Positions 131 through 14,422 of a stretch of 14,422 bases of DNA are shown here, piece by piece (position 1 is the stretch's first letter; each line of letters begins with the position of its first letter). The position numbers were made by a program, and so were the translations under genes. Source of the DNA: a virus (Duplodnaviria; Heunggongvirae; Uroviricota; Caudoviricetes); IMG/VR virus record IMGVR_UViG_2681813315_000020; one strand, 5' to 3'. The notes below the pieces were generated by a model that worked only from the letters and a program-made list of their open reading frames with translations, ran no database searches and was not told where the DNA came from.

Positions 131-612
131 AAATATACAGGCGGGTCATCTTTCCAGGGGAAAGCACGCCAATTCATGAGGGGCGTTAATGTCGATATGG
201 GGATCCCCATAACGGGGCTACCTGGCTTTTTTTCCGGTTAAATGTCAATCAGGCTGGTGGGTTTTACATACCCTTGATCACCGTAATGATGATTCAGATC
301 TGCACCTTTCCACCAATGGTGGAAAAGCCCACAGCAGGCCGCCCAGCCTCCCCCAATGGGGGATTGTGGAAGAATCAACGGGTTAGGCCTTAATCATCTG
401 CGTAATCATAAGTAATCATAATGTTCATTCATCCAGCGCAATTTTGCGTTATCGGGAATATCAAACAGTTACCGCGCCGACTTCCTCAAATTGAGGTTTC
501 CGAAAATATCAGCGGGTTAGCGATTAAGCTGACCATTAATTAAACTGCGAAAATGTCGTAGTTGTGAGGGGTGTAGCCAACCCATTTTTGGACCGTCGGG
601 AATATCAACCAG

Positions 613-906
613 TTACCGCCGCAACCGCTCCGGCTTCTTCCAGTGGTAAGTAATTTTTTCTTTCTCCTGGTACATCTCCACGCGGCGACGATATGACAAC
701 AACTCCAGAACTCTGGTGCGTATATTGCGTATATCCACGCCGTTAAGCTCGATACCGTCACGGCGCATCACCTCAGCCACCACACGCGCGTAATTTTCGG
801 CTATCACGCTGTCCGGCTGCGTGGCCTCCTGTTTGCCTGCTTCCTGGCTGATTCCGGTAACGCGGCGGATTATTTTTAGTAGTTCGGTTTCGCTCATTCT
901 CGTCAT
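613..906 (-). CDS. Hypothetical 97-aa protein, translationally coupled to terL (ATGA stop/start overlap)
   Basis: ORF MTRMSETELLKIIRRV...; its ATG (906-904) overlaps the terL TGA (905-903). No family recognised by eye. Confidence 0.5.
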   Translation of the reverse strand: MTRMSETELLKIIRRVTGISQEAGKQEATQPDSVIAENYARVVAEVMRRDGIELNGVDIRNIRTRVLELLSYRRRVEMYQEKEKITYHWKKPERLRR

Positions 907-2564
907 ACCCCATCAAACGCCGCAAGCCGCTCTTTGTGGCTGTCGCTCATATCGAATGCAAAATCCTCGTGCTCTGCCTGGAATGTGCCAAACGCCATCA
1001 GCGCCGCAACGCTCGGGTCTATCTTGTTGGATGATTTTTTCTTGTTCGGCTTGATATTGGCGTTCGCGTCACTCTGCATCACAACATTACTCATTGACCA
1101 GGCCAGCACCGGATCGCCACGATGCACAATCACCTTCCGGTTAACAAAAACTTCGAACGATTTCGCCGCCGGACTGAAACGAAGGTATGTTTGCGGGAAC
1201 GGCTCCACCTCAAATCCTGCCCCCTGTAGCTGCGTCCTCAGGTGCGTGGCGTTCCATGTATCGAAGCCCACCAGCCTGATATTGAAATTCTCTGCATCCG
1301 CCATGATGTCATCACGGATACGGTCATAATCAATGCAGTCACCCGGTGTTGTGCGTATCCAGCCCGCCTTTACCCACTGGCGATAGATGGCGCGGTTTTT
1401 ATTGGCGGGGTTCTGTAGCTGAAATTCCGGCAGATAGTGACGGGAAACCAGCATAATCTTTTTACCGACCGGAAAGGCATAGCACACGCTGGAAATATCG
1501 CTGGTTGATGATAAGTCCAGCCCCGCGTAGCACTCCTGACCGTATAAATCCGCCTCCGCGAACGTTCCGGCGCACTCCGCCCATGCACCGTTACCCATCC
1601 ACGGCGTAGCCCCCTGACACCAGATATTGAATCGCTTGGTGAGCATTTCCACCTACTGCGACGGAATACCCCGCGCTTTCTGGATGGTTGAGGCCAGTTT
1701 TTCACGATCGACGGAAACATCGATATTGGGATTCGCCTTTATCCACATCGCCGGATCGTCAACCTCGCTTTCATCATCCAGCTCGTAAATCAGCACGAAC
1801 ATGGATTCGTTCACCTCTTCACCATCCAGTATCTGGCAGCAATAGTCATAGTGTTGTTTACAGGCTGAAACAACGTTGCTCCCCGATGTGGTGATGGCAA
1901 ATAACAGCCCCTCCGGACGCGCCCCCATTCCCAGTTCAAGCGCGGAATAAACCCCGTTGTCAGGGTGCAGGTGATATTCATCCACAATGGCAAGACTCGG
2001 GTTTGTACCTTCAATGGTTGCCGCTTTTGCTGCCAGTGGCTTTAACAGGCTGTTGGTTTTCGGGTGTATCACCTTGTGTGCCTGAATATTTACCCGCTTT
2101 CGTAACGGTCGGGATAAAAGGCACATCTGACGCGCATCATCAAACACGATCCGCGCCTGATCACGACTCACGGCGGCGGTGTAAATATCCTGCTGCCCGT
2201 TTTCCATAACCAGAAACCAGTTAGCCAGGATAGCGGCGACCGTGGATTTGGCATTTTTTCGCGGCACTTCAATGAATGCGCTGGTGTATTTGCGCCGTCC
2301 GGTGGCCTTAACCTTAAAGCCCAGGATGCACGCAAAGGCGAACTGCTGCCACGGCTCCAGCTCAATGGGGCTACCGCGCATTGCGCCTTTTACGTGCGGA
2401 CACACCCTGGAAAAGGCAATAAACCGCTCCACGACCTCCGGATCGAACGTGTAAAGGGGGTTTTCAAGGTCAGAAAAATACCGTTTAACGGCCTGTTTCA
2501 GTCGTTTACAGGCCGTAATTTTGCCGTTTTTTACGCCTTCTGCGTACTCATGCCAGGCGGTCAA
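903..2564 (-). pseudogene. terL: Terminase large subunit (HK97-like TerL) interrupted by an in-frame TAG at 1653-1655; N-terminal ATPase fragment 1656-2564, C-terminal nuclease fragment 903-1652
   Basis: ORFs 1653..2564 and 903..1652 are contiguous and in the same frame (...KARGIPSQ-TAG-VEMLTKRFNIW...). The N-terminal part carries a P-loop-like motif (VPRKNAKST) and TerL-like N-terminus; the C-terminal part resembles the terminase nuclease domain. Combined about 553 aa, typical TerL size. Apparent TTG start at 2564 preceded by AGAGGA; overlaps the terS 3' end. Confidence 0.75.
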
Positions 2565-2904
2565 GCTCGTCCTCTTCCTCTGTTTCCGGTGGATTTCTGC
2601 GGCGACTTACCGGGTCAAAACCCAGCAAAGAAGCCATTTTGATCATTATTCTTTCAGCGTCAGCCTTTGCGCTCAGGGCGGGGTTTCTGCTCTCGCTGCC
2701 CTGACTGTTAACAATGCTGAACCCGCGCGTGGCAAGGTCTTCGACGGCTTTGCGGTATATGGAGTAGTTAACGCAATACAGCTCCAGATTGCTCCAGTCG
2801 GCGGGGGTAAGGTCTTCCCGTCCGGAAAGCTGGCGCGATTTTTCCTTCCACTGCCTGACCGCGATTTCATCCAGGTAAGCGGGGGCTTTTGGTGGTCTTG
2901 CCAT
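2548..2904 (-). CDS. terS: Terminase small subunit, P27-like family
   Basis: Translation from the internal ATG at 2904 (MARPPKAPAYLDEIAVRQWKEKSRQL...GFDPVSRRRNPPETEEEDELD) matches the typical P27-family TerS N-terminus and acidic C-terminus. Lies immediately upstream of terL. Confidence 0.8.
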   Translation of the reverse strand: MARPPKAPAYLDEIAVRQWKEKSRQLSGREDLTPADWSNLELYCVNYSIYRKAVEDLATRGFSIVNSQGSESRNPALSAKADAERIMIKMASLLGFDPVSRRRNPPETEEEDELDRLA

Positions 2905-3192
2905 GTTCTTTTTTCGCCCAATTATTTTCAAAAAAATTCCCGTGCACAAAAATTTGAGGAGGCGGTCGGTGTCCGGCAGGGACGGTTTCGTCCTGAAAAC
3001 CACCCCCACCCCCTCTGACGGCCTCACCAGCGATTGCGAAAACATTCCATGACCTCGCGGTCACGGTCGGTTAATTGCTTCGCTGTGGTGCGTTCTGTGC
3101 GCCCTGTCCTGTTGGCTTTGTGCCCTGTCTCCTGTGTCTTCCATAAGTCACGCTGCCTTATCAGTCCACGTATCAGCCTGGTTTGCTCCTGT
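2905..3192. other. Candidate cos/packaging-site region between HNH and terS
   Basis: 288-bp gap in an otherwise tightly packed operon. Contains direct repeats GTGCGCCCTGTCCTGT (3098-3114) and GTGCCCTGTCTCCTGT (3120-3136), inverted repeat TGACCtcgcGGTCA (3049-3062), hairpin GGACGgtttCGTCC and C-tracts. In HK97-type phages cos lies between the HNH gene and terS. Confidence 0.35.
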
Positions 3193-3633
3193 TCAGTCAT
3201 CATCGCCATACATCCAGTCGTTACGGTGTGCTGCCCGTTCTTCCTGCTCGCGATACATGCCCGCCTTACGGTTCGCTTTCGTGGCTGGATCTTCCCGTGT
3301 CGTCTTACGGTTGTGGCACGTCTGGCACAATGCCTGGTGGTTCCACTCAGGCCAGAAGAGAACATCACCGCCGCCATTGATGGGGATGATGTGATCCACC
3401 ACAAGAGCTGGCGTATAAATCCCCTTAGCCAGACAACGCACGCATAACGGGTTTTTGCTCAGGTACAGGGCGCGGTATTTGTCCCACTGTCGGGAATACC
3501 CGCGCGCGCGGCGGTGTCCCCGTCTGGCATCCTCTGCACGCCATACAGCCCGTCTGTGCTCTTCACACTTGCCGGACTTCACGCGCTTATTACAGCCCGG
3601 CTCAGTGCATCGCCTTAATGGTTGCCACGGCAT
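3193..3633 (-). CDS. HNH endonuclease (phage packaging-associated)
   Basis: 146 aa with Cys pairs and the HNH core ...VVDHIIPINGGGDVLFWPEWNHQALCQTCHNRKT. Start overlaps the connector stop (TGATG). Sits directly upstream of terS as in HK97-type HNH-dependent cos packaging. Confidence 0.85.
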   Translation of the reverse strand: MPWQPLRRCTEPGCNKRVKSGKCEEHRRAVWRAEDARRGHRRARGYSRQWDKYRALYLSKNPLCVRCLAKGIYTPALVVDHIIPINGGGDVLFWPEWNHQALCQTCHNRKTTREDPATKANRKAGMYREQEERAAHRNDWMYGDDD

Positions 3634-3935
3634 CAGTACACCCCCACATCACGATAAACCGACCAGAGCGCAGAAATAGCCATAGGCAGTTCAGACTGCT
3701 CCACTGGTGAAACTGCTTCCCTGTTCTCGTACAGGAAAGCGATGTACATCAGGCAACCAACACGCATTGCCGGGGTAAATTCCAGCCCGTCTTCAAAACG
3801 TTTCCCGATATGCTTCTGGCAGGCTTCCAGCGCCGCATCGGTATACATTTTCAGAAGTTCGCCTTCACCGGATAAATCATCATCAAGTCGAAGATGTGCC
3901 CTGACTTCATCAGGTGTAATTCTGGCTTCACTCAT
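3633..3935 (-). CDS. Head-tail connector protein (gp6-like)
   Basis: Start at internal ATG 3935 with SD AAGGGAGA: MSEARITPDEVRAHLRLDDDLSGEGELLKMYTDAALEACQKHIGKRF..., typical N-terminal signature of gp6-like connector proteins. About 100 aa. Confidence 0.65.
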   Translation of the reverse strand: MSEARITPDEVRAHLRLDDDLSGEGELLKMYTDAALEACQKHIGKRFEDGLEFTPAMRVGCLMYIAFLYENREAVSPVEQSELPMAISALWSVYRDVGVY

Positions 3936-5142
3936 CTTTTCTCCCTTTAATTTCCACAGTCTGTTTCCATGCCTGGCTGAACTCATCACCACCTTCACGC
4001 GGCGGCATACCCTCGCGTTCGCGAGCTTCGTTCGGATTCATGATCCCGCTCTTAATCCCTTTCTCATACGTGGCATAACGTTCGGTGGGTGTGGCGCGCA
4101 GTAAATCGGCTGAATCAAACTCAACCAGATAACGGGTACCAGGTACGGGAGAAGTCACCAGCAAAGCGGCCTTGATTTGCTGTTCGAAGTTCGCCAGCCA
4201 CGGGCGCATTGTCATGGTCAGAAATGCGCGGCTCGCCTCACTGAAATTGCTGTAGGTGCTGTTGCTGTATTCCTGAAGAAAAATCGGCGACACGTTGAAC
4301 ATCCTGGCGATGTCTTCAATGGAGAAGCGACGGGAGGCCAGCCATTCCGCATCCTGGTTACTCATCCCCAGCCGCCTGTAATCCATGCCCCCTTCAAGGA
4401 TTGGCGTTTTTCCGGCATTTTTCGCCCCCTTGTAGCGTTCCAGTGCGTCTAATGCCTGTTTACCTTTCACGCCGTCCAGCCATTCACCTGACGTGATAAT
4501 CCCTGCCGCCATCATGCCATCTTTCATAATGCTGGCTCCGTGGCGCTGTTGAGCAAGGCCAAGCCCCAGCGCCTCACGGCAAATCGTGACGGGGGAACGC
4601 CCCAGAAAGCCATCATCCGAGGCATAGCGGAGATGCAGAACTTCTTCCTGTAAATACGTGCGCACCGTTCCTGTACAGGGTTCGGTGATGGTATAGCGGT
4701 ATTTGTGTGTGCCTGTGCGTTCCGGTACAACACACCCCGGCGCATAAGGATGAAGTGATTTTGGCTGCCCGTCCCGCCCCCACTCAATAACCGCATAGGC
4801 GTTACCGTTCAGCAGGCAGTGACGCATCATTGTGCGTTTAAACTGGTAAGGTGTCAGGCACGAATTAGGCTGCTCATTCAGCAGAATATCTACCGGGTGA
4901 CTGTCCAGCCATTCCCGCGCCTCTCTGCCCTTATCATTGCGTACCAGATACAGGTAACACGGCATCGTGGCCACCGCCTCAGCGATGACAGAAACCGCGT
5001 TCATCACAGCAGGCAATGATTCAGCCGTCCCGGCAGAAACATATTCTCCGGATCCGGTATTTGGTACACCAGACAACGCCAGAAAATCATCAATGGACAG
5101 GTTACGCAGATCGCTTTTTTTACGACTAAAAGGCCACCACAT
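3928..5142 (-). CDS. Portal protein, HK97 family
   Basis: About 404 aa from ATG 5142, 1 nt after the protease TGA. Portal-like segments: HPVDILLNEQPNSCLTPYQFKRTMMRHCLLNGNAYAV..., ...FSIEDIARMFNVSPIFLQ..., ...TMTMRPWLANFEQ... Confidence 0.85.
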   Translation of the reverse strand: MWWPFSRKKSDLRNLSIDDFLALSGVPNTGSGEYVSAGTAESLPAVMNAVSVIAEAVATMPCYLYLVRNDKGREAREWLDSHPVDILLNEQPNSCLTPYQFKRTMMRHCLLNGNAYAVIEWGRDGQPKSLHPYAPGCVVPERTGTHKYRYTITEPCTGTVRTYLQEEVLHLRYASDDGFLGRSPVTICREALGLGLAQQRHGASIMKDGMMAAGIITSGEWLDGVKGKQALDALERYKGAKNAGKTPILEGGMDYRRLGMSNQDAEWLASRRFSIEDIARMFNVSPIFLQEYSNSTYSNFSEASRAFLTMTMRPWLANFEQQIKAALLVTSPVPGTRYLVEFDSADLLRATPTERYATYEKGIKSGIMNPNEAREREGMPPREGGDEFSQAWKQTVEIKGRKDE

Positions 5143-5143
5143 A

Positions 5144-5704
5144 TCACAACCCCGCCAGTTCAGCCCAGCGATGACGATTATTTCCTGCCGGGCGTAATTC
5201 AGGGTACTGTGCAAACAACGAACGGTGGGCAATCTCCACGCCGGATTCGGGATAAGCAGGCATCGATGTTATCGTGATTTCACGGAGTTCTGCTGCGGTT
5301 ACAGTACGCAGATACGGTTTTTGCGCGATATTCCACTCCTCGCATAATGCGCGAAAGCCAAAGCTCATTCCTGTAATATCGCCACGTTCCACCAGCGTAA
5401 GCACATCTTTTCCAAGCTGGGTATTTGGCGGTGTCAGTTCAAAACGTAGCCCGGTGTTATCCTCAGTCAGTACCAGTGAGCCGGATTTGGTACGCCCCAG
5501 CAGTTGGGTATAGTCATGCTCATACAGACAGCGCACATCATTACCTGCCGCCAGATAGTCAGCAAAAGCCCCCGGCGTGAACTGTTCGCGAAACTCGTCC
5601 CAGATAATTTCTGAAAGGCTGTTCCAGCGAACGGCATAACCCACCAGTTTTTTATCGCTGGCGGTCAGTTCAGATGTACGGATTTCAAAATCGGTGTTTT
5701 TCAT
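5144..5704 (-). CDS. Prohead maturation protease, HK97 family (S78-like)
   Basis: Start at internal ATG 5704 (SD GGAG 7 nt upstream): MKNTDFEIRTSE...LVGYAVRWNSLSEII...GMSFGFRA...LREITITSMPAYPESG, matching the conserved blocks of HK97 prohead proteases. Confidence 0.8.
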   Translation of the reverse strand: MKNTDFEIRTSELTASDKKLVGYAVRWNSLSEIIWDEFREQFTPGAFADYLAAGNDVRCLYEHDYTQLLGRTKSGSLVLTEDNTGLRFELTPPNTQLGKDVLTLVERGDITGMSFGFRALCEEWNIAQKPYLRTVTAAELREITITSMPAYPESGVEIAHRSLFAQYPELRPAGNNRHRWAELAGL

Positions 5705-5753
5705 CGGTGTACTCCATAAAGCTGAAAAAGGAGGCCGAAGCCCCCTTTGCTCA

Positions 5754-6899
5754 TTACTTGCCAGCCTGAATTTCCAGAATCTTGATGGCGTTCGAATCCA
5801 CCACACCACCGCCCAGATATTTCTGGGTATAGATGTTAATGAATCCAGGCTCGCTGAAATCCGGACGGGTACGCGTACCGGTTTTATGGTCAACGATGAA
5901 ATAACCGCGCTTAAAGTCACCGACTGCAATCACACCGTCTGGCATAAATTCCAGATATTCAACCGGAAGCCCCAGCAGAGAATCAGGATCACCAGCCTGT
6001 AAACGATCGCGCCAGATGTAATCACCAGTGGCATTTTTCAGTTTTTGTGCGGAGGCGGCTGTATTTGAGTTCATCACCCATACAGCTTTTTTGCGGTACT
6101 TATTGCGCAGCGTAAATTTCAGGTCAATCAGCATATCGGCGCTGAGACTGCCAGTCACTTTTTTCGTCTGGAGCGTACCGAAAGGACGGGTTTTGTCATT
6201 ATCCGTAGCGCGCGGGAAAGTCAGGAAACCTTTGGCTTTTTTCTCGCCATCACCGGAAACCAGATCCGTTTCTTCGGTATCAACGAAAGTGTCGCCAATT
6301 TCAGAAGATAACCAGCCCATAATATCGACTTCGGAAAAATCGATAATTTCCTGAGTGGTTTTCGGGTAAGCGTAGATCGGATACAGGCGGATACTGACTT
6401 CATTCAGTTTTGGGGTTGCCGTCTGGTTACGTGCCGCACCTTCTTCGCCGTGTCCCACGACCGCACCCCCGGCAGAAACCAGTTGCTTAAATTCATTACT
6501 GTGAATGGTTTTAACAGTACAGATTTTACGCATCACCGACTCATCAGAAAGCTGACGCATAATTTCTCTGTTCAGTTCCGGGATAACCGTATAACCACCA
6601 TCAGCCGGAACACTGCCGGACAGGTTGCGGGTTTCCCCGGTCAGAATGTAAGAGCGTAGCTCATTTTTGGTGATTTTATCTTCGACGGGAACACCAGGCT
6701 GGTTACGTTCTTCATCAGCCACAGACTCGAGGCGGGAAATTTCTGTGTCGAGGGAATCGGCTTTTGCACGCAGTTCATCAAACTGTTTGCCTTCGTCATC
6801 GGTTAGACTGCGGTTTTCACTGTCGGCTTTTTCCAGCAGGGATCGCATCTGGTTTTTCAGGGCGGTTTTTTGCTGGCGGAGTTCGATTAATTTCTTCAT
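5754..6899 (-). CDS. Major capsid protein, HK97 fold, with N-terminal coiled-coil (delta/scaffold-like) domain
   Basis: 381 aa. N-terminal about 100 aa predicted coiled coil (MKKLIELRQQKTALKNQMRSLLEKA...). Body has HK97-family capsid blocks (GHGEEGAARNQTATPKLNEVSIRL..., ...DLVSGDGEKKAKGFLTF...). Confidence 0.85.
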   Translation of the reverse strand: MKKLIELRQQKTALKNQMRSLLEKADSENRSLTDDEGKQFDELRAKADSLDTEISRLESVADEERNQPGVPVEDKITKNELRSYILTGETRNLSGSVPADGGYTVIPELNREIMRQLSDESVMRKICTVKTIHSNEFKQLVSAGGAVVGHGEEGAARNQTATPKLNEVSIRLYPIYAYPKTTQEIIDFSEVDIMGWLSSEIGDTFVDTEETDLVSGDGEKKAKGFLTFPRATDNDKTRPFGTLQTKKVTGSLSADMLIDLKFTLRNKYRKKAVWVMNSNTAASAQKLKNATGDYIWRDRLQAGDPDSLLGLPVEYLEFMPDGVIAVGDFKRGYFIVDHKTGTRTRPDFSEPGFINIYTQKYLGGGVVDSNAIKILEIQAGK

Positions 6900-7054
6900 G
6901 AAGGTTTTCTCGCATTGGTTAAGATTCAGGACGTGAAACCAACACGGGGGGAGCGCCGCCCGACACTCTCGGCATCTCGCAGATCAACCCGGCATCGCGC
7001 AGGGGGTCAGGCGGCATTGTGGCGGCTCACGTCTGAGTGCCACACGCCAACATA

Positions 7055-7082
7055 TACATAAAAATCAGTATGTAAACATCAA
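7055..7082 (-). promoter_or_regulatory. Candidate sigma70-type promoter for the head/packaging operon
   Basis: On the minus strand: TTGATG (7082-7077) - 16 bp - TATGTA (7060-7055), immediately downstream of the GTTGTTC repeat array and upstream of the capsid gene with an about 150-nt GC-rich leader. Hexamers are imperfect; prediction by eye only. Confidence 0.3.
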
Positions 7083-7091
7083 CCAGAATCA

Positions 7092-7123
7092 CCGAACAAC
7101 CTGGAACAACCACGAACAAATAA
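7092..7123. repeat. Three 10-bp-phased GAACAAC repeats (minus strand GTTGTTC) between the terminator and the packaging-operon promoter
   Basis: Read directly: ccGAACAACCtgGAACAACCacGAACAAAt; same motif family as 103-130 and 13111-13173. Confidence 0.6.
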
Positions 7124-7142
7124 TTTACAAAACCTGAAAAAA

Positions 7143-7163
7143 GGCCCGGAAAAAATCCGGGCC
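7143..7163. terminator. Bidirectional rho-independent terminator
   Basis: GGCCCGG-aaaaaat-CCGGGCC, flanked by an A-tract upstream and T-tract downstream on the plus strand; on the minus strand it follows the stop of the 7173..7421 gene and precedes TTTTTCAGGTTTTG. Confidence 0.8.
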
Positions 7164-7172
7164 TTTATCGCT

Positions 7173-7421
7173 TTATTGTTTCACTGGCTCCCGCATTCTG
7201 CGTCTTATTTTCCACAAATATTCGATCATCGCTTCCACCTGCTCACGGTTGGTTGCGAAAATTTCCCCGGTCAGTGAGCTACGCAGAAAATCATGATGAT
7301 CCACAAAAAATAACGCATCGGAAGAAAGCAACCGACGATATTTTTTTGCTGTCGTGGTTTCCAGATCATCAAAACCATGAAGCTTTTTATGTTGCTGAAC
7401 TTCTTCAAATGTCACTGGCAT
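7173..7421 (-). CDS. Hypothetical 82-aa protein
   Basis: ORF with strong SD (AAGGGGGA) before ATG 7421; start overlaps the 3' end of the FinO/ProQ-like gene; followed by the terminator. No family recognised. Confidence 0.5.
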   Translation of the reverse strand: MPVTFEEVQQHKKLHGFDDLETTTAKKYRRLLSSDALFFVDHHDFLRSSLTGEIFATNREQVEAMIEYLWKIRRRMREPVKQ

Positions 7422-7942
7422 GTATCCCCCTTTGCTGCCCGGCGCTGGCGCTTGTGCTTCTCATTCAGCACCATCAGCCGTGTTTCTGCCTCCTGCTGTT
7501 CCTGTGGTGTCACTTCCCCACATGGCTGGCCTTTCAGATCGTAACGTGCGCCACCAGCTATCAGGGCGCGGTAATAGCGCGGAGACTGCGCATAGGATGC
7601 CAGCGTCGCACGTAATACCCCCGGCCCGAATGCCAGCCCCCTGACGGCGATATCCTGCATCAGGTCGTCGAATATCCCCACCTTAAGCGGCTTCGGTGCT
7701 TTATGGCTGAATAAGTCAGGCCACATCTCAGTGAGGCGGTTAACGCGTCGGCGGTTTTTGCGCTGCCTTTTGGTCATATGCTGCCACGGTGTCGCCCCTG
7801 TGGGCTTCTGCTGTGCGTTCTGATTGCCGGGTATCACTTTATGCGCCGATGTGGTTTTATCCTGCTCTTGCGCCGCCTGCGTCGTTTTCTGCGGCGTGCC
7901 GTAAATGCCTTTCGGCTTCCGGTTAATGGTCAGCGTTGTCAT
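7412..7942 (-). CDS. FinO/ProQ-family RNA-binding (RNA chaperone-like) protein
   Basis: 176 aa; region WPDLFSHKAPKPLKVGIFDDLMQDIAVRGLAFGPGVLRATLASYAQSPRYYRALIAGGARYDLKGQPCGEVTPQEQQEAE matches the conserved ProQ/FinO N-terminal domain pattern (PLKIGIFQDL...LR.AL..YT.S.RY...G..R.DL.G.P.GE). SD GGGGAAGG before ATG 7942. Confidence 0.65.
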   Translation of the reverse strand: MTTLTINRKPKGIYGTPQKTTQAAQEQDKTTSAHKVIPGNQNAQQKPTGATPWQHMTKRQRKNRRRVNRLTEMWPDLFSHKAPKPLKVGIFDDLMQDIAVRGLAFGPGVLRATLASYAQSPRYYRALIAGGARYDLKGQPCGEVTPQEQQEAETRLMVLNEKHKRQRRAAKGDTCQ

Positions 7943-7978
7943 GCCTTCCCCTGTAATTACTCTGTTCGCTGTTGTGAA

Positions 7979-8404
7979 TTAAAACGGTATGTTATCCCCG
8001 TACGGGTCATCGTGCTGGCTTGTCTGTTGTTTTGCCCTGTTCAGTGCGTCAGTGGCCTGGCCCTGTTGACCTTTTTTGCCGCCCGGTCGCGCCGTTCGCG
8101 CACTGATTACGCTGTCTGCAATAACCTGCCAGCCCCGCTGCGTTTCCCCGTTCTGGCCTGTCCACTGGCTCACCTGCATGTTACCCGCCACGCTCACCAG
8201 TTCGCCTTTGTGGTGTTTTGCCAGTGCGTCGGCCTGTCTGCCAAACGCCAGGACAGATAACCACATCGTCGCCGTTCCGTCATCTGCCTGGCTGCATGGC
8301 AGGGGAACCGCCATACTCGCCATCGCCATTTGTGTCCCCTTGCTGGTGGTCTTTAACTGCGGGTCAGCCACCAGCCGCCCGTAAGCCGCTATCTGTGCTG
8401 TCAT
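7979..8404 (-). CDS. ssb: Single-stranded DNA-binding protein
   Basis: 141 aa; OB-fold-like N-terminal region (AAYGRLVADPQLKTTSKG...WLSVLAFGRQADALAKHHKGELVSVAGNMQVSQWTGQNGE), Gly/Gln-rich linker and acidic C-terminal tail ending DDPYGDNIPF, cf. the canonical SSB DDDIPF tail. Confidence 0.8.
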   Translation of the reverse strand: MTAQIAAYGRLVADPQLKTTSKGTQMAMASMAVPLPCSQADDGTATMWLSVLAFGRQADALAKHHKGELVSVAGNMQVSQWTGQNGETQRGWQVIADSVISARTARPGGKKGQQGQATDALNRAKQQTSQHDDPYGDNIPF

Positions 8405-8933: not shown

Positions 8934-10748
8934 TTAATTTTTGCTGTCGTCATTTGTGACCGATGCACATGATGGCATCCAGTCTTCTGAATCCTCTGTC
9001 AGTGTCACATTTGAACGCAAACCGTGCTTCGTTTTCCGTTTTATATACTCCCTGCCATATTCCGCCATTGCCCCCGGCATATCTTTACCGAAGCGCGTCA
9101 GTGTTACAGGTTTACCGAATCCGTGTGCCCTCATATATGCCAGATAGGCGTGATAAAGATACCTGCGCGGACTGAACGGAATAATTTCGGCATTACCCAC
9201 TAACAGACCATCACACATTACCGACGACATGAGATAGCCACAGAAGTCCACCAGCGAATCGCCCTCGCGTTTTATCACCAGAGCTTCTTCTGATTTCTGC
9301 TGCTCATACAGCAGGCGTTTAGCTTCGTCCTGGTCAGAAAAACGAGTAAGCAGATGGCGAATCACAACCGCCAGCTCTCCTTCTATTTTTTCTGCCAGCA
9401 TGGGGTCGCGCTCGTTCTCCGGTACAACCTCCGAAAAATTGAATATCACCCGACGACGTGAGATCCCCCCGCTGCGGTCACTGAATGACATGGCGTTATT
9501 GTTCACCGCCAGCACGACCGCCTGAATGCGTGTTGAGTAGGGGGCTTTATGCTTCGGGTCGATTGCCACCTTGTCACCGCCTGTAATAGCCTTAATTCCT
9601 GCGCCATCACCAGCGTAGCGGGTCATATCCGGCATGATAATCAGCGAAAAGCCAACCACTAACGCGCGTTCCCTTGCATCTTCCAGCGCCTTCATGCTTG
9701 CCGATACTGTGTTGGCCTTACCCGCCAGCATGGTGCAAATCTCCGCCATCACGCTTTTACCACTTCCCCCTGGACCTGTTACCTCAATGAATAACTGCCA
9801 GTCGTACCGGTTCGCCAGCACCATGAATAATGCAGCCAGCACGCGATCCGTCTTGCGGTCATTCTCTGCCACCGAGCAGCGTAACCACTTCCAGAAATTC
9901 GGCGCATGTGTTGCCAGCGTTTCCCCCTCTGCTGGTGGGCTGAAAGGTAATTCACTGGCAATTAACAACCAGTCGTTTTTGTTATGCTCCCGAAAATTAC
10001 CTGTTCTGGTATCAAATACCCCGTTACTGAATCCAATCAGGTTACGGGCTGTATTCCCCATTACAGGCAAACTTAACTTCATGGTATCGACCGCCGATTT
10101 AATGGCGTTCTGCGAATAGCTGATCTCCGCATCAATGAAAATCTGCGCCATAGCACGCTGTAACTCTTTATCCTGAATCGGCTCCCATACAACGCCGTTG
10201 TAATGGTGAACAGTGTCAGAGTCGGCATGAATCGCCAGTTCACCGCCATAATGTGCCAGGAGAACTTCGCCGCGCTGGCTTGCTCCCATCTGGTTAAGCG
10301 CCAGTGGTGCGGCGCTGTCTTCTGTTTTTTTCTTAACAGGAAGCTGAATCACCAGACCATCAGAAAGATTCTGGCGCTCACGGGCCAGATATTCGCGCCA
10401 GTTCTGCACCTCCTGGCCGTGCATACCCTCAGGATAAAAATTTGCATCCTGTACGCCTGCCGCCGCCAGCTTCTGACCAATCGCCTTTATCATTACTGGC
10501 GCAAGATATCCGGCCCTGAATATGCGCACGGATTTTCTGCCTTCCGGCACAATTTGCAGCTTATCCAGTTCGGATAACTGCTGCTCCCCAAGCCACACAG
10601 GAGGCTCATTATCTCCGGCCATACGCGCGTCATGTTCCTGCCATTGTTTTGCGTGTGACCAGGCATCACTACCCGCAAAAATAATGACTTCTGTTTCTTT
10701 GTGTTTTATGCCGCGTGACTGCTGTTTTACGTTCGGTGCCAGTTTCAT
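8934..10748 (-). CDS. Replication initiator: primase/helicase-type protein with D5_N-like region and P-loop NTPase domain
   Basis: 604 aa; Walker A FIEVTGPGGSGKSVMAE; upstream region resembles the D5 N-terminal-like domain found with phage/plasmid primase C-terminal NTPases. Stop codon abuts the iteron array. Confidence 0.8.
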   Translation of the reverse strand: MKLAPNVKQQSRGIKHKETEVIIFAGSDAWSHAKQWQEHDARMAGDNEPPVWLGEQQLSELDKLQIVPEGRKSVRIFRAGYLAPVMIKAIGQKLAAAGVQDANFYPEGMHGQEVQNWREYLARERQNLSDGLVIQLPVKKKTEDSAAPLALNQMGASQRGEVLLAHYGGELAIHADSDTVHHYNGVVWEPIQDKELQRAMAQIFIDAEISYSQNAIKSAVDTMKLSLPVMGNTARNLIGFSNGVFDTRTGNFREHNKNDWLLIASELPFSPPAEGETLATHAPNFWKWLRCSVAENDRKTDRVLAALFMVLANRYDWQLFIEVTGPGGSGKSVMAEICTMLAGKANTVSASMKALEDARERALVVGFSLIIMPDMTRYAGDGAGIKAITGGDKVAIDPKHKAPYSTRIQAVVLAVNNNAMSFSDRSGGISRRRVIFNFSEVVPENERDPMLAEKIEGELAVVIRHLLTRFSDQDEAKRLLYEQQKSEEALVIKREGDSLVDFCGYLMSSVMCDGLLVGNAEIIPFSPRRYLYHAYLAYMRAHGFGKPVTLTRFGKDMPGAMAEYGREYIKRKTKHGLRSNVTLTEDSEDWMPSCASVTNDDSKN

Positions 10749-11774: not shown

Positions 11775-11859
11775 CGCACCATTCGGTTTTAACCTATCAA
11801 TAAGTGAATCGCACCTCAAGCCTTTCTCTGAAATTTTTTTGTGTATACTGAATCGCACC
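11771..11859. promoter_or_regulatory. Divergent promoter/operator region with three ATCGCACC direct repeats
   Basis: gcATCGCACC (11771-11780), gaATCGCACC (11806-11815), gaATCGCACC (11850-11859). A good -10-like TATACT at 11844-11849 lies just before the third copy, upstream of the plus-strand RHH gene (SD AGAGAGGA, ATG 11880). Confidence 0.4.
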
Positions 11860-11879
11860 AACTTAGAGAGGATTCAGTA

Positions 11880-12059
11880 ATGGCAACAGGTTCAACAAAT
11901 AATAAGTCGCAACAGTTAAATGCCAGATTCCCGCATGATGTTGTTGCAGACTTAGAAAAAAATTTAGATGAAGGTGAAAGCAAGGCGCAATTTATAGTTA
12001 CTGCCGTTAAAGGTGAGATCAAACGCCGCCAGCGCCGCAAGGCCAAAGAGCAGGAGTAA
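11880..12059 (+). CDS. Small ribbon-helix-helix (Arc/MetJ-like) DNA-binding protein, candidate regulator
   Basis: 59 aa from ATG 11880: MATGSTNNKSQQLNARFPHDVVADLEKNLDEGESKAQFIVTAVKGEIKRRQRRKAKEQE; pattern of a short beta-strand (LNARFP) followed by two helices and a basic tail resembles the Arc repressor (FNLRWPREVLDLVRKVAEENGRSVNSEIYQRV). Confidence 0.5.
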   Translation: MATGSTNNKSQQLNARFPHDVVADLEKNLDEGESKAQFIVTAVKGEIKRRQRRKAKEQE

Positions 12060-12101
12060 CCATCACCAGCGCCGTGGTGTAAGGTATTACGGCGCATTGC
12101 T

Positions 12102-12290
12102 ATGCAGGACAACACAATGACCGATAAAGAATTGACCAAAACATTATCACCGACACGGAAAAGACGACGCAGAAAGATAGAGCATGAATCAGAAAGATTC
12201 GCGCCATGTGCTTTTGCCCTTGAGCAATTCCTTAAAGAGTACAGGGAAAAGCGCTCATTGCAGGTATGGCAACGAACTGAACCAGACTGA
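12102..12290 (+). CDS. Hypothetical small basic protein (start may be ATG 12117)
   Basis: ORF MQDNTMTDKELTKTLSPTRKRRRRKIEHESERF...; AGGA lies 9 nt before the second ATG; followed by an intrinsic terminator at 12357-12388. Confidence 0.35.
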   Translation: MQDNTMTDKELTKTLSPTRKRRRRKIEHESERFAPCAFALEQFLKEYREKRSLQVWQRTEPD

Positions 12291-12356
12291 TTGCATTGCC
12301 CACCAGCCGCAAATGTGGCATTGTTGGTGATGCTTTTGTTTTCCCTTGTTCTCACT

Positions 12357-12388
12357 GGCGACCCTTTTGCGGTCGCCTTTGTTTTGCC
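12357..12388 (+). terminator. Rho-independent terminator
   Basis: GGCGACC-cttttgc-GGTCGCC followed by TTTGTTTTG. Confidence 0.7.
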
Positions 12389-12481
12389 TGTTATCCGGCA
12401 ATTGTGGCGCTTCGCCACACGGTTGATATAATTCCCCTGCACTGATCCATTTTTTTCGCAGCAGGTTAATTGTTCAGAAAG

Positions 12482-12510
12482 GCGGTTCCTTATCGGGGCC
12501 GCTTTTTTTA
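12482..12510 (+). terminator. Second candidate rho-independent terminator
   Basis: GCGGTTCC-ttatc-GGGGCCGC (two G-U wobbles) followed by TTTTTTTA. Confidence 0.45.
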
Positions 12511-12622
12511 TGCCTGAAAATACCCGATAACATGGCTTTTTAGTTTCACCAGGACGAACGAAGCCCCGCCCCTGTTCGGGCGTATATCCAGTATTCATGG
12601 TTAGATCTCTGTGTTAGTGGAT

Positions 12623-12650: not shown

Positions 12651-12854
12651 TTAGTGAACTGCCTCGCGGCTGTCCTTCCATGCCAGAACTTCGGATAAAG
12701 ACCAGCCAACGGAACGACCGCCGAGTTTACGCCGTGATGGGAATTGTCCAGTCTTCTCCAGGCGATACCGACATGAGCGGCTCAGGCCTGTAAGTTGCTG
12801 ACATTCTTTTTCACGTATAAAGCGATCAGCGCTTAACACTATTGCCTCCGTCAT
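12651..12854 (-). CDS. alpA: AlpA-family transcriptional regulator / excisionase-like winged-helix protein
   Basis: 67 aa (or 62 aa from GTG 12839, preceded by GGAGG): ...DRFIREKECQQLTGLSRSCRYRLEKTGQFPSRRKLGGRSVGWSLSEVLAWKDSR, matching the AlpA signature (R.....TGLSRSTIYRL...G.FP...KLG.R.V.W...EV..W). Downstream of and co-oriented with int as in CP4-57 (intA...alpA). Confidence 0.8.
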   Translation of the reverse strand: MTEAIVLSADRFIREKECQQLTGLSRSCRYRLEKTGQFPSRRKLGGRSVGWSLSEVLAWKDSREAVH

Positions 12855-13192: not shown

Positions 13193-14422
13193 TTATATTT
13201 CTCTGGCTATTGGCAGTGTGGTTACGTTTTCGTGAGTACCCGCCAGTATCTCTAACCGCTCTGTCCACATGTCCAGCGCATTACGTTTCGCATCGAGATA
13301 ACGGGAGTGGTTATAGACTCGCTGCATCCCTGGCATCTGGTGAGCGGTGAGTTGTTCGACAATATGCGGATCCACGCCTAAATCGTTCAGCATCGTGGTA
13401 AACGTGCGCCGTATATCGTGTAGTGACCAGTGCGGATGGTTTAATTTTTTGTGCGTGAATCTGCCGTATTGCGACACGCTGGCTTCCTGTTTCAGTTCCC
13501 CGAGTAATAGTCCTGTGTGTCGGTTCTGCTCCACCAGCCGTGTGACGAACGGTAAAATGCTTTCCGGTATTGGCCTGAATATGGCGACCTTCGTTTTGCT
13601 GTGCTCCTTCGGTACTGTCCAGAGCATTTCCTTAAAATCCCACTCCCTGATCTCCGACAGCCTCAGTTCTCCGGTTCGGCAACCAAACACAATCAGGAGG
13701 CGGATTAGTGCGCTGTAGTAGGGCGGGAATATTTTTTTATCCAGCGCCTGTAATAATTCGCCCAGTTCTTTGTTACTAAGCACGCGTTCGCTTATGCCCG
13801 GCTTTTTGCCAACGTCCACCACGTTGAGATCATCCAGAACGTTACTGACTGCGTAGCGACGTTTACGGCAGAACTTAAGCGCCTGTTTACACGCCTGCAT
13901 CATGTGACCAGACGTTACGGGGGATTTTTTGCGTATCCGGTCAAAACAGGCCAGCCAGTGACGTAATTCGCATTTATCCAGTGGCATGTTACCGATGTGC
14001 TGTATGACGTGATTATTCAGGCGACTTTTCAGGCATACATAATCGACACGGTTTTCCTTTACGTGCGTTTCCAGCCAGTAACTGATCGCATCGCCAACCG
14101 TTACGGGTTTTAACGCTTCCTGCACAGTGTAGTTCAGTTCATGACGTGGGTTTTTCCCTTCTGCCAGCCATGCACGACACTTTGCGGCTTTTTCCCTGGC
14201 TGCTTTAAGGCTCAGATCGGGATAGTTTCCCAGCTTCAGGCGTTCCGGTGTGGTATCCCTTCCCGTTCCAGCCCTGTAGGTGAAGTACCAGGTCAATTTA
14301 CCTGATGTTAAATATTTCACGCTCAGATTACCGCCATCGCTATAGAACGTATTTTTCTCCGCTGGCTTACCATAAAGTTTTCTTAACAATGTATCGCTCA
14401 GTTTGTTAAGCGCTCTGCTCAC
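13193..14422 (-). CDS. int: Tyrosine integrase, P4/CP4-57 type, with N-terminal arm-binding (DUF4102-like) domain; 5' end at or just beyond the window edge
   Basis: 409 aa reaching the window edge, where the first codon is GTG. N-terminus LSDTLLRKLYGKPAEKNTFYSDGGNLSVKYLTSGKLTWYFTYR resembles the P4-type integrase N-terminal domain; C-terminal catalytic region has HDIRRT and VYNHSRY (tyrosine recombinase His-x-x-Arg and Tyr motifs). Confidence 0.9.
   Translation of the reverse strand: MSRALNKLSDTLLRKLYGKPAEKNTFYSDGGNLSVKYLTSGKLTWYFTYRAGTGRDTTPERLKLGNYPDLSLKAAREKAAKCRAWLAEGKNPRHELNYTVQEALKPVTVGDAISYWLETHVKENRVDYVCLKSRLNNHVIQHIGNMPLDKCELRHWLACFDRIRKKSPVTSGHMMQACKQALKFCRKRRYAVSNVLDDLNVVDVGKKPGISERVLSNKELGELLQALDKKIFPPYYSALIRLLIVFGCRTGELRLSEIREWDFKEMLWTVPKEHSKTKVAIFRPIPESILPFVTRLVEQNRHTGLLLGELKQEASVSQYGRFTHKKLNHPHWSLHDIRRTFTTMLNDLGVDPHIVEQLTAHQMPGMQRVYNHSRYLDAKRNALDMWTERLEILAGTHENVTTLPIAREI

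Follow-up and report, generated by a model that had tools for sequence, protein, structure and literature searches.

The capsid-first packaging operon of a 14.4-kb E. coli island follows the known gene order of proteobacterial capsid-forming PICIs

Capsid-forming PICIs (cf-PICIs) of proteobacteria share one conserved organisation of their packaging genes, running from the capsid gene to terL (Alqurainy et al, bioRxiv 10.1101/2022.09.08.507074). The capsid-to-terL order also serves as a search criterion for such elements (10.1101/2025.02.11.637232), and the SatelliteFinder survey, which calls the organisation ‘very conserved’, reports 969 cfPICIs and finds them in 13% of Enterobacteriaceae genomes (PMC10085698). 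Two further groups of cf-PICIs in Firmicutes, with an independent phylogenetic origin, begin either with portal-protease-capsid or with hnh-terS-terL (bioRxiv 10.1101/2022.09.08.507074). The proteobacterial prototype, EcCIEDL933, is experimentally functional; helper induction, small island-encoded capsids and dependence on helper tails have been shown experimentally for it and a few others only. AlpA is the master inducer of PICIs (Alqurainy et al). Classical Gram-negative PICIs (EcCICFT073 type), in contrast, have no portal, connector or TerL of their own and redirect helper capsids, and portal and connector are forbidden components for a PICI in SatelliteFinder (PMC10085698).

The DNA analysed here (the window, 14,422 nucleotides) is an E. 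coli island of ~14.4 kb with an integrase, AlpA and a D5-type primase. We consider it, with a probability of about 93%, to be a cf-PICI closely related to EcCIEDL933, its gene order being the conserved packaging-operon arrangement that defines the proteobacterial cf-PICI lineage. Genes were called from Pfam and PHROGs scans of the window, with an NCBIfam (TIGR) scan added (Table 1). Transcription along the minus strand runs through an HK97-type capsid, S78 protease, portal, Ad1 connector, HNH, P27-type TerS and TerL. A first-pass annotation, made from the letters and a list of ORFs, had read the same order, and Pfam, PHROGs and RefSeq match it; the interval it singled out, 3928–6899, gives the exact limits of the portal-protease-capsid block. 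The chance that the order is an artefact of wrong strand or coordinates, which is only an a priori risk of any tool-free reading of raw sequence, is negligible: such an error is refuted by the ORF list, the Pfam, PHROGs and NCBIfam scans and the independent RefSeq annotation of near-identical loci, which agree on one strand and one order. In RefSeq, an E. coli locus 98% identical to the window has identical genes in identical order. The protease start is placed at 5704 by homology and RefSeq, with the longest ORF beginning at 5929; for the portal gene, the longest ORF begins at 5232.

Table 1. Features of the window, listed from the integrase end.
Feature	Coordinates	Strand	Evidence and remarks
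Integrase	13193..14422	-	Pfam scan; 85% identical to EcCIEDL933 integrase
AlpA regulator	12651..12854	-	67 aa, HTH only; PF05930 Phage_AlpA, E 3e-18
Primase/replicase	8934..10748	-	D5_N, DUF5906 and Pox_D5 domains (Pfam)
Accessory genes	7412..8404	-	SSB 8404..7979; ProQ/FinO-family protein 7942..7412 (Pfam)
Intrinsic terminator	7137..7163	-	GGCCCGGA-TTTTT-TCCGGGCC plus T-run; read from sequence
Promoter-like region	7049..7131	-	Box TTTGTAAATTATTTGT 7131-7116; -35-like TTTACA 7076-7071; -10-like TATGTT 7054-7049
Structured capsid leader	6900..7043	-	H1, P2, C-rich linker, segment B, third hairpin
Major capsid protein, HK97-fold	5754..6899	-	PF05065 E 7e-61, phrog_10, TIGR01554; 74% identical to EcCIEDL933 capsid
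Prohead serine protease	5144..5704	-	Peptidase_S78, E 1e-44; 61% identical to EcCIEDL933
Portal	3928..5142	-	PF04860 E 7e-91, phrog_12; 80% identical to EcCIEDL933
Head-tail connector, gp6-like/Ad1	3633..3935	-	PF05135, phrog_40, TIGR01560
HNH endonuclease	3193..3633	-	PF01844, phrog_144; 84% identical to EcCIEDL933
HNH-terS intergenic region	2905..3192	-	Putative cos site
TerS, P27 family	2548..2904	-	PF05119, TIGR01558; 88% identical to EcCIEDL933
TerL	903..2564	-	ATPase and nuclease domains; 92–95% identical to EcCIEDL933 TerL
Small conserved gene 3' of terL	613..906	-	phrog_1561

The integrase forms one end of the island (14422..13193) and is 100% identical to that of L012, a relative integrated at yifB. 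Host genes lie on both sides of the island, with ~14.4–14.9 kb between them in loci L001 and L012. The att sites fall outside the window. The primase homolog is named ‘DNA primase family protein’ in RefSeq. No tail, holin or lysin gene came up in the ORF list, in the family scans or among the genes that RefSeq annotates across the complete island. The island combines features of a cf-PICI, namely an integrase at its end, AlpA, a primase/replicase and its own capsid, protease, portal, HNH, TerS and TerL in the conserved order, and lacks tail and lysis genes. With classical PICIs of the EcCICFT073 type it shares the int-alpA-pri left half and presumably AlpA-dependent induction, and with both Firmicutes cf-PICI groups it shares gene content and the strategy of having its own capsid and terminase.

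The closest match is EcCIEDL933 (NZ_CP008957.1, 1,680,329–1,694,760), with which the window is collinear from the integrase to the small post-terL gene at 56–95% protein identity. The two are alike in module order, protein families, size (~14–15 kb), location in the E. coli chromosome and the lack of both tail and lysis genes. They differ in the replicase (D5/DUF5906-type in the window, DUF927 in EcCIEDL933), an accessory gene (ProQ/FinO versus PerC), the integration site and the leader type; moreover, the window is missing the head-closure/adaptor gene that would separate the portal gene from the connector gene, and its terL carries an amber mutation. The phrog_1561 gene is 74% identical to the EcCIEDL933 gene at the same position and, judged by position only, probably corresponds to ‘gene 1792’, mutation of which severely reduced transfer.

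HK97-like phages share with the window the families of capsid, protease, portal, gp6-like connector, HNH, P27-type TerS and TerL, but in these phages the order is terS-terL-portal-protease-capsid-connector, followed by tail genes, and the genomes are 38–42 kb with tail, lysis and lysogeny modules. The window is permuted relative to this order. The first-pass statement that the permutation is not a simple rotation holds on inspection, as neither a cyclic order nor a mirror image fits; an inversion of the HK97 order is also ruled out, because every gene shares one strand. The nearest database phages (SfI, SfII, ST64B and phiP27) are only 25–42% identical, and a comparison with phage SfI speaks against an HK97-like temperate prophage, in which the canonical order comes with tail, lysis and immunity modules: in the window the order is different and there are no tail or lysis genes.

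The synteny comparison that had been proposed as a check places the window with EcCIEDL933 and apart from phages. Among fetched loci, capsid relatives with at least 55% identity carry the portal gene downstream of the capsid gene in 59/59 cases and terL downstream in 55/55, whereas phage-type capsid relatives below 55% identity with a detectable portal carry it upstream (21/21). Chance origin of the order is no issue, given its retention in all of these related loci. In a phage database, only four records held close capsid and portal homologs (57–86% identity). Two are complete and annotated, and these are 15–16.5 kb, satellite-like and carry the window’s full gene order. The remaining pair are a 3.8 kb fragment and a 106 kb record, and here, too, the portal gene is downstream of the capsid gene. 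Beyond these four, identity is at most 42% and the records are true phages with canonical order. Several 15–16 kb GenBank ‘phage’ records are evidently cf-PICI satellites. A single-protein scan of genome contigs yielded 7 loci, 5 of them distant Firmicutes prophages with canonical order (a thin outgroup); the scan of viral contigs was a far more informative source of loci. The island is present at ≥80% coverage in 67/5426 complete E. coli genomes.

The gene order is therefore merely typical of its lineage, because the published description of proteobacterial cf-PICIs states exactly this order; it is the already known hallmark of a family of satellites that was published in 2022–2023 and is common in Enterobacteriaceae. 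The first-pass proposal of a distinct lineage is right, but this lineage had been described before. The refuting case that it named, an order that is the norm of a large known phage group, applies, except that the group is one of satellites, not phages.

That the window is instead a degraded, rearranged remnant of an HK97-like prophage is very improbable. Its packaging proteins all belong to families of HK97-type phages, as a remnant’s would, and this copy has a defective terL gene. However, the layout is kept with intact ORFs in dozens of loci from five genera (Escherichia, Klebsiella, Salmonella, Rosenbergiella and Pasteurella) at a consistent element size of 13–18 kb, the int-alpA-pri module is of PICI type, the identity gap to any phage is large and the prototype is experimentally functional. 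In correction of the first-pass annotation, terL is split by an in-frame TAG (TGG to TAG at 1655–1653). This stop is private to the copy: 56 related loci lack it, and none of the 401 matching E. coli genomes has an identical 61-mer. On the conserved synteny in relatives and the private stop, the reading as a rearranged remnant is rejected. Carrying a nonsense mutation in terL, this particular cf-PICI copy is therefore probably packaging-deficient, that is, unable to package itself.

Within the packaging operon, the portal-to-Ad1 gap was analysed for a head-closure gene, which in EcCIEDL933 is PF05521 and counts among the 11 core components of SatelliteFinder. None lies there, because the portal stop overlaps the connector start; the gene is missing in 40/57 related loci as well. 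SatelliteFinder accepts elements with 10/11 components as ‘Type B’, the commonest type (PMC10085698). The putative cos site was placed between hnh and terS from the ends of the linear record of a relative, vB_KppS-Ant, which starts 22 nt ahead of terS and stops just beyond HNH; aligned to the window, these termini put the junction near 2991, at odds with the terS offset. If the linear record represents packaged ends, vB_KppS-Ant would have terS-terL at its left end and HNH at its right end. HK97-like phages have the same arrangement, with terS-terL at the left end and HNH, a packaging cofactor of HK97-type terminases, at the right.

The suggestion that the capsid gene comes first behind an operon promoter is borne out in anatomy, as the gene heads the packaging operon after a terminator, a -35/-10-like pair and a leader. 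The terminator (7163–7137) closes the upstream module just past the stop of an 82-aa ORF (7175–7173) and is kept in relatives, with compensatory variants. In loci whose upstream contexts are otherwise unrelated, similarity starts exactly at the TTTGTAAATTATTTGT box, and TGTAAATTA is present in 51/57 loci selected by MCP; from such sequence features we infer that 7049..7131 is a promoter. A consensus scan of 500–8000 gave no excess over shuffled sequence (promoters, 4 versus 6.3; terminators, 11 versus 9.2), but carries little weight because it overlooked the obvious terminator at 7163–7137. The leader comprises H1, an invariant 25-mer hairpin (7043–7019), P2, a long and strongly covarying hairpin (~7015–6955), a C-rich linker and the invariant segment B, GGTTTCACGTC, with a third hairpin in this type at ~6946–6911. 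Both the 25-nt 5' hairpin and the 11-nt segment downstream of it stay invariant among cf-PICIs that share only 67–70% capsid identity. An Rfam search of 6700–7400 returned only a weak match in the terminator region, the leader staying below every family threshold, and the cf-PICI literature searched for such terms does not mention a capsid leader.

The EcCIEDL933 leader is of another type, in which H1 covaries and P3 resembles a terminator. It appears to be an attenuator, with an anti-antiterminator, an antiterminator and a U8 terminator that immediately precedes the capsid AUG. A long-range A:B pairing is possible in the leader, but is 5–9 kcal/mol less stable than the minimum free energy structure, and its covariation comes from a single sequence type, EcCIEDL933. 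We tentatively suggest, at somewhat less than even odds, that the capsid-first order is tied to a dedicated and seemingly undescribed cis-regulatory unit of box, promoter and ~145-nt leader, whose EcCIEDL933 form would be a classic attenuator. We also considered whether AlpA of PICIs works in the manner of the antiterminator AlpA of P. aeruginosa; the idea was rejected as homology and kept only as a loose analogy: the P. aeruginosa protein has its HTH at residues 128–142 plus an N-terminal ring-forming segment, while the island AlpA consists of a 67-aa HTH only.

Selection for capsid-first expression, which would keep the protein required in the greatest number promoter-proximal and under direct leader control, would add to the cf-PICI explanation without giving the island another identity, and we regard it as an unlikely reason for the permuted order. 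It is in keeping with the position of the capsid gene directly after the terminator, the conserved -35/-10-like pair and the conserved leader, with the tight packing or overlap of the genes downstream, and with an order that does not vary in 59 relatives despite allele swaps of capsid, connector and accessory genes. Inheritance, however, explains conservation within a single clade equally well, the two independently evolved Firmicutes groups have other orders, and HK97-like phages make sufficient capsid protein from a gene in fifth place. The cf-PICI literature searched does not address selection on this order.

Taking the island as a cf-PICI, and going by the published prototype work, a helper phage would trigger AlpA, and the island would excise and replicate. 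Its single co-directional packaging operon, with the capsid gene promoter-proximal behind the terminator, promoter-like region and structured leader, would then be transcribed to yield its own small HK97-type capsids. The island’s own HNH, TerS and TerL would package its DNA, with tails alone borrowed from the helper; the cut at a cos between hnh and terS is our addition to this scheme. In practice, the combination of capsid-first order, int-alpA-pri and no tail genes is a fast way of telling a cf-PICI from an HK97-like prophage remnant. The promoter and leader before the capsid gene are the only part that might reward further work. They could explain how AlpA induction leads to capsid production, as well as the capsid-first placement; if real, the leader would gate the whole packaging operon, giving a functional reason for the capsid gene to come first.

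The window matches a ~14.4 kb E. coli chromosomal island that is present at ≥80% coverage in 67 of 5426 complete genomes, and partial matches occur in 1991 complete E. coli genomes. In strain JP538 the island is flanked by smrA and abgR, and in strain E500002 it splits yifB; the RefSeq annotation of both islands agrees with the window in gene content and order and includes no tail or lysis genes. Genes in the window were called using Pfam, PHROGs and NCBIfam scans (see table), and all substantial ORFs are on the minus strand. From the integrase through the small gene after terL, the window is collinear with EcCIEDL933, the prototype capsid-forming phage-inducible chromosomal island (cf-PICI, a satellite that borrows helper tails), which we located in the EDL933 chromosome (NZ_CP008957.1 1,680,329-1,694,760, between roxA and phoQ). 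In published mutants of this prototype, each packaging gene is required for transfer and the helper supplies tails only. Downstream of alpA, a 260-aa ORF (11816-12598, minus strand) with no match in the family scans overlaps an opposite-strand YlcI/YnfO-family gene (11841-12059, plus strand). The equivalent stretch of JP538 is annotated as a truncated pseudogene, and published work describes the gene after alpA as a variable region of unknown function.

Features of the window, with protein identity to the EcCIEDL933 counterpart
Feature	Coordinates	Strand	Identity	Remark
Integrase	14422..13193	minus	85%	
AlpA	12854..12651	minus		
Several small genes		minus		including Icd-like (name from RefSeq annotation of near-identical JP538 locus, L001) and DUF4222
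D5-type primase/replicase	10748..8934	minus		
SSB	8404..7979	minus	68%	
ProQ/FinO-family protein	7942..7412	minus		
82-aa ORF		minus		between ProQ/FinO-family and capsid genes
Intrinsic terminator	hairpin 7163-7143, T-run 7142-7137	minus		ends upstream ORF
-35-like TTTACA, 16 nt, -10-like TATnTT	7076-7049	minus		conserved, 3' of the box
H1 hairpin GTGGCACTCAGACGTGAGCCGCCAC	7043-7019	minus		directly after -10-like element
HK97-type major capsid protein	6899..5754	minus	74%	
S78 prohead protease	5704..5144	minus	61%	
Portal	5142..3928	minus	80%	
gp6-like (Ad1) connector	3935..3633	minus	56%	
HNH endonuclease	3633..3193	minus	84%	
P27-family TerS	2904..2548	minus	88%	
TerL	2564..903	minus	92-95%	
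Small conserved gene after terL	906..613	minus	74%	phrog_1561

The first-pass annotation had described an inverted head gene order (capsid, protease, portal, connector, HNH, terS, terL), and the ORF and family scans bear this order out, with 3928-6899 exactly bracketing the portal-protease-capsid block. It is, as claimed, no simple rotation, being neither a rotation nor a mirror image of terS-terL-portal-protease-capsid-connector. As all genes are co-directional, it is a true permutation, which requires at the least that the morphogenesis block shifted ahead of hnh and that capsid and portal were exchanged around the protease. The comparison with HK97-like phages and capsid-forming satellites that the annotation had proposed identifies this order as a published trait of the cf-PICI family. 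According to Alqurainy et al. (bioRxiv 10.1101/2022.09.08.507074), the capsid-to-terL order is conserved in proteobacterial cf-PICIs, and two Firmicutes groups of independent origin have other orders; the same ordered gene list serves as a search criterion in a later preprint from that group (10.1101/2025.02.11.637232). SatelliteFinder recovered 969 cfPICIs of "very conserved" organisation, in 13% of Enterobacteriaceae genomes (PMC10085698). The suggestion of a distinct lineage was therefore right, but the lineage is already known and the order is merely lineage-typical, an outcome that the annotation itself had allowed for.

For synteny, window proteins were compared by tblastn with all loci fetched by capsid similarity from IMG/VR viral contigs, GTDB genomes, E. 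coli genomes and GenBank phages. Among 60 capsid hits with ≥55% identity, the portal lay downstream in 59/59 and TerL in 55/55, contig ends having cut off portal or TerL in the remainder; among 25 phage-type capsid hits (24-36% identity), the portal lay upstream in 21/21. The first-pass annotation had also raised selection for capsid-first expression, a hypothesis that would explain why the order is kept. However, different orders suffice in the remaining cf-PICI clades and in every HK97-like phage, and conservation within a single clade is explicable by inheritance alone. In the lambdoid prophage adjoining EcCIEDL933 (EDL933 locus L013, 1-7205), terS and terL are followed by a protease-capsid fusion (645 aa, Peptidase_S78 plus Phage_capsid) and then the portal, so capsid-before-portal is not unique to cf-PICIs.

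Only four records of the curated phage collection have close homologs of capsid (57-69%) and portal (64-86%). These include Pasteurella Pmp8 (OR544139.1, L003, 15.3 kb) and vB_KppS-Ant (LR881103.1, L002, 16.5 kb), GenBank "phages" that, judged by their integrase, primase and cf-PICI packaging order, are evidently cf-PICIs. True phages come next, at ≤42% identity; one of them, SfI, shows the canonical order (terS-terL-portal-protease-capsid) with tail genes after it, unlike the window. Two gene names in the satellite-like records look doubtful: "tail length tape measure protein" for a 2.3 kb gene that follows terL in LR881103, and "tail terminator" for a gene directly upstream of the Pmp8 capsid gene. 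The vB_KppS-Ant record, which is linear, begins 22 nt ahead of terS and stops just past HNH; these ends fit a putative cos site between hnh and terS.

In ~17 IMG/VR loci (L024, L025, L028, L029, L031, L034, L044, L050, L054, L056, L057, L059-L061, L063, L066, L074), a cf-PICI is inserted in terL of a resident SfI/phiP27-like prophage at one of two positions, splitting it at ~residue 300 or, in L054, at ~residue 200. Their packaging modules are near-identical and their integrase is different (40-44% identity). They resemble the "helper-embedded PICI" configuration described in PMC10111431, although term searches of that paper turned up no description of capsid-forming islands or of this exact terL site.

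Portal and connector of EcCIEDL933 are separated by a head-closure (Phage_HCP) gene, whereas the window lineage has none at this junction (3928-3935). Among relatives L001-L066 the gene is absent from 40 and present in 17; the latter have a connector allele that is divergent (56-63% identity), including where the portal is 97% identical. This co-change is consistent with the adaptor/connector cassette swapping reported in 10.1101/2025.02.11.637232. Loci L039-L066 and the window present two capsid alleles that are only ~69% identical, while protease, portal, HNH, TerS and TerL share 96-100% identity across modules with either allele, which implies that recombination replaced only the capsid gene. 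The terL of the window carries an in-frame amber codon (TAG, 1653-1655) in place of the TGG (Trp) found in 56/56 related loci, and of the complete E. coli genomes, 401 of which have a match, none contains an identical 61-mer at this site. Because TerL is cut after its ATPase domain, this copy has probably lost the ability to package, provided that the amber base is not a sequencing error.

We aligned the 300 nt before the capsid ATG across divergent cf-PICIs: their upstream contexts, otherwise unrelated, can be aligned from a box, TTTGTAAATTATTTGT (7131-7116), onwards. A leader of ~145 nt (6900-7043) comprises H1, a long hairpin (P2), an invariant 11-mer (GGTTTCACGTC) and a third hairpin. The exact H1 25-mer and, further downstream, the exact 11-mer are present in 55 of 57 loci selected by capsid homology only, the exceptions being EcCIEDL933 and Pmp8. 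An exact-match scan of IMG/VR for the 25-mer returned at least 120 matching stretches, with one copy each. In 167 of 171 loci that hold the 25-mer, it is followed by a capsid homolog whose start is 96-122 nt away (locus ends cut off the capsid region in the other 4). Between the invariant 25-mer and 11-mer lies P2, whose basal stem takes 22 distinct forms in 92 unique leaders, every one perfectly complementary. The three-hairpin structure was scored on a MAFFT alignment, not fitted to it, of 19 diverse leaders, the same sequences from which the structure had been derived: 95.5% of cells are paired (36-46% in slid controls), both-sided changes occur at 13 pairs (reached in 0/500 shuffles), and 8/10 P2 pairs are compensatory. 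The region 5' of the capsid gene is thus a conserved, structured non-coding element, and the capsid gene is the first of its own unit.

The EcCIEDL933 leader (L013 37962-38126) is unlike all others. Its H1 differs in sequence, with compensatory changes at three pairs; a segment farther downstream, GCGTCCTGG, complements CCAGGACGC of H1; and the third hairpin is followed by U8 and then directly by the capsid AUG. From its sequence, this last hairpin with U8 looks like an intrinsic terminator inside a transcription attenuator. Some 270 nt separate the window's gene for a ProQ/FinO-family RNA-binding protein from the structured leader downstream of it, and EcCIEDL933 has a PerC-family regulator in this position; a functional tie between protein and leader is pure speculation. 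No Rfam family matches the leader, and term searches of the 2022 and 2025 cf-PICI preprints (10.1101/2022.09.08.507074, 10.1101/2025.02.11.637232) turned up no mention of such an element. It may serve as a promoter, stabiliser, attenuator or protein-binding site. While the gene order was observed correctly and is a family trait already in print, the leader is the one part of the finding that is perhaps worth following up.
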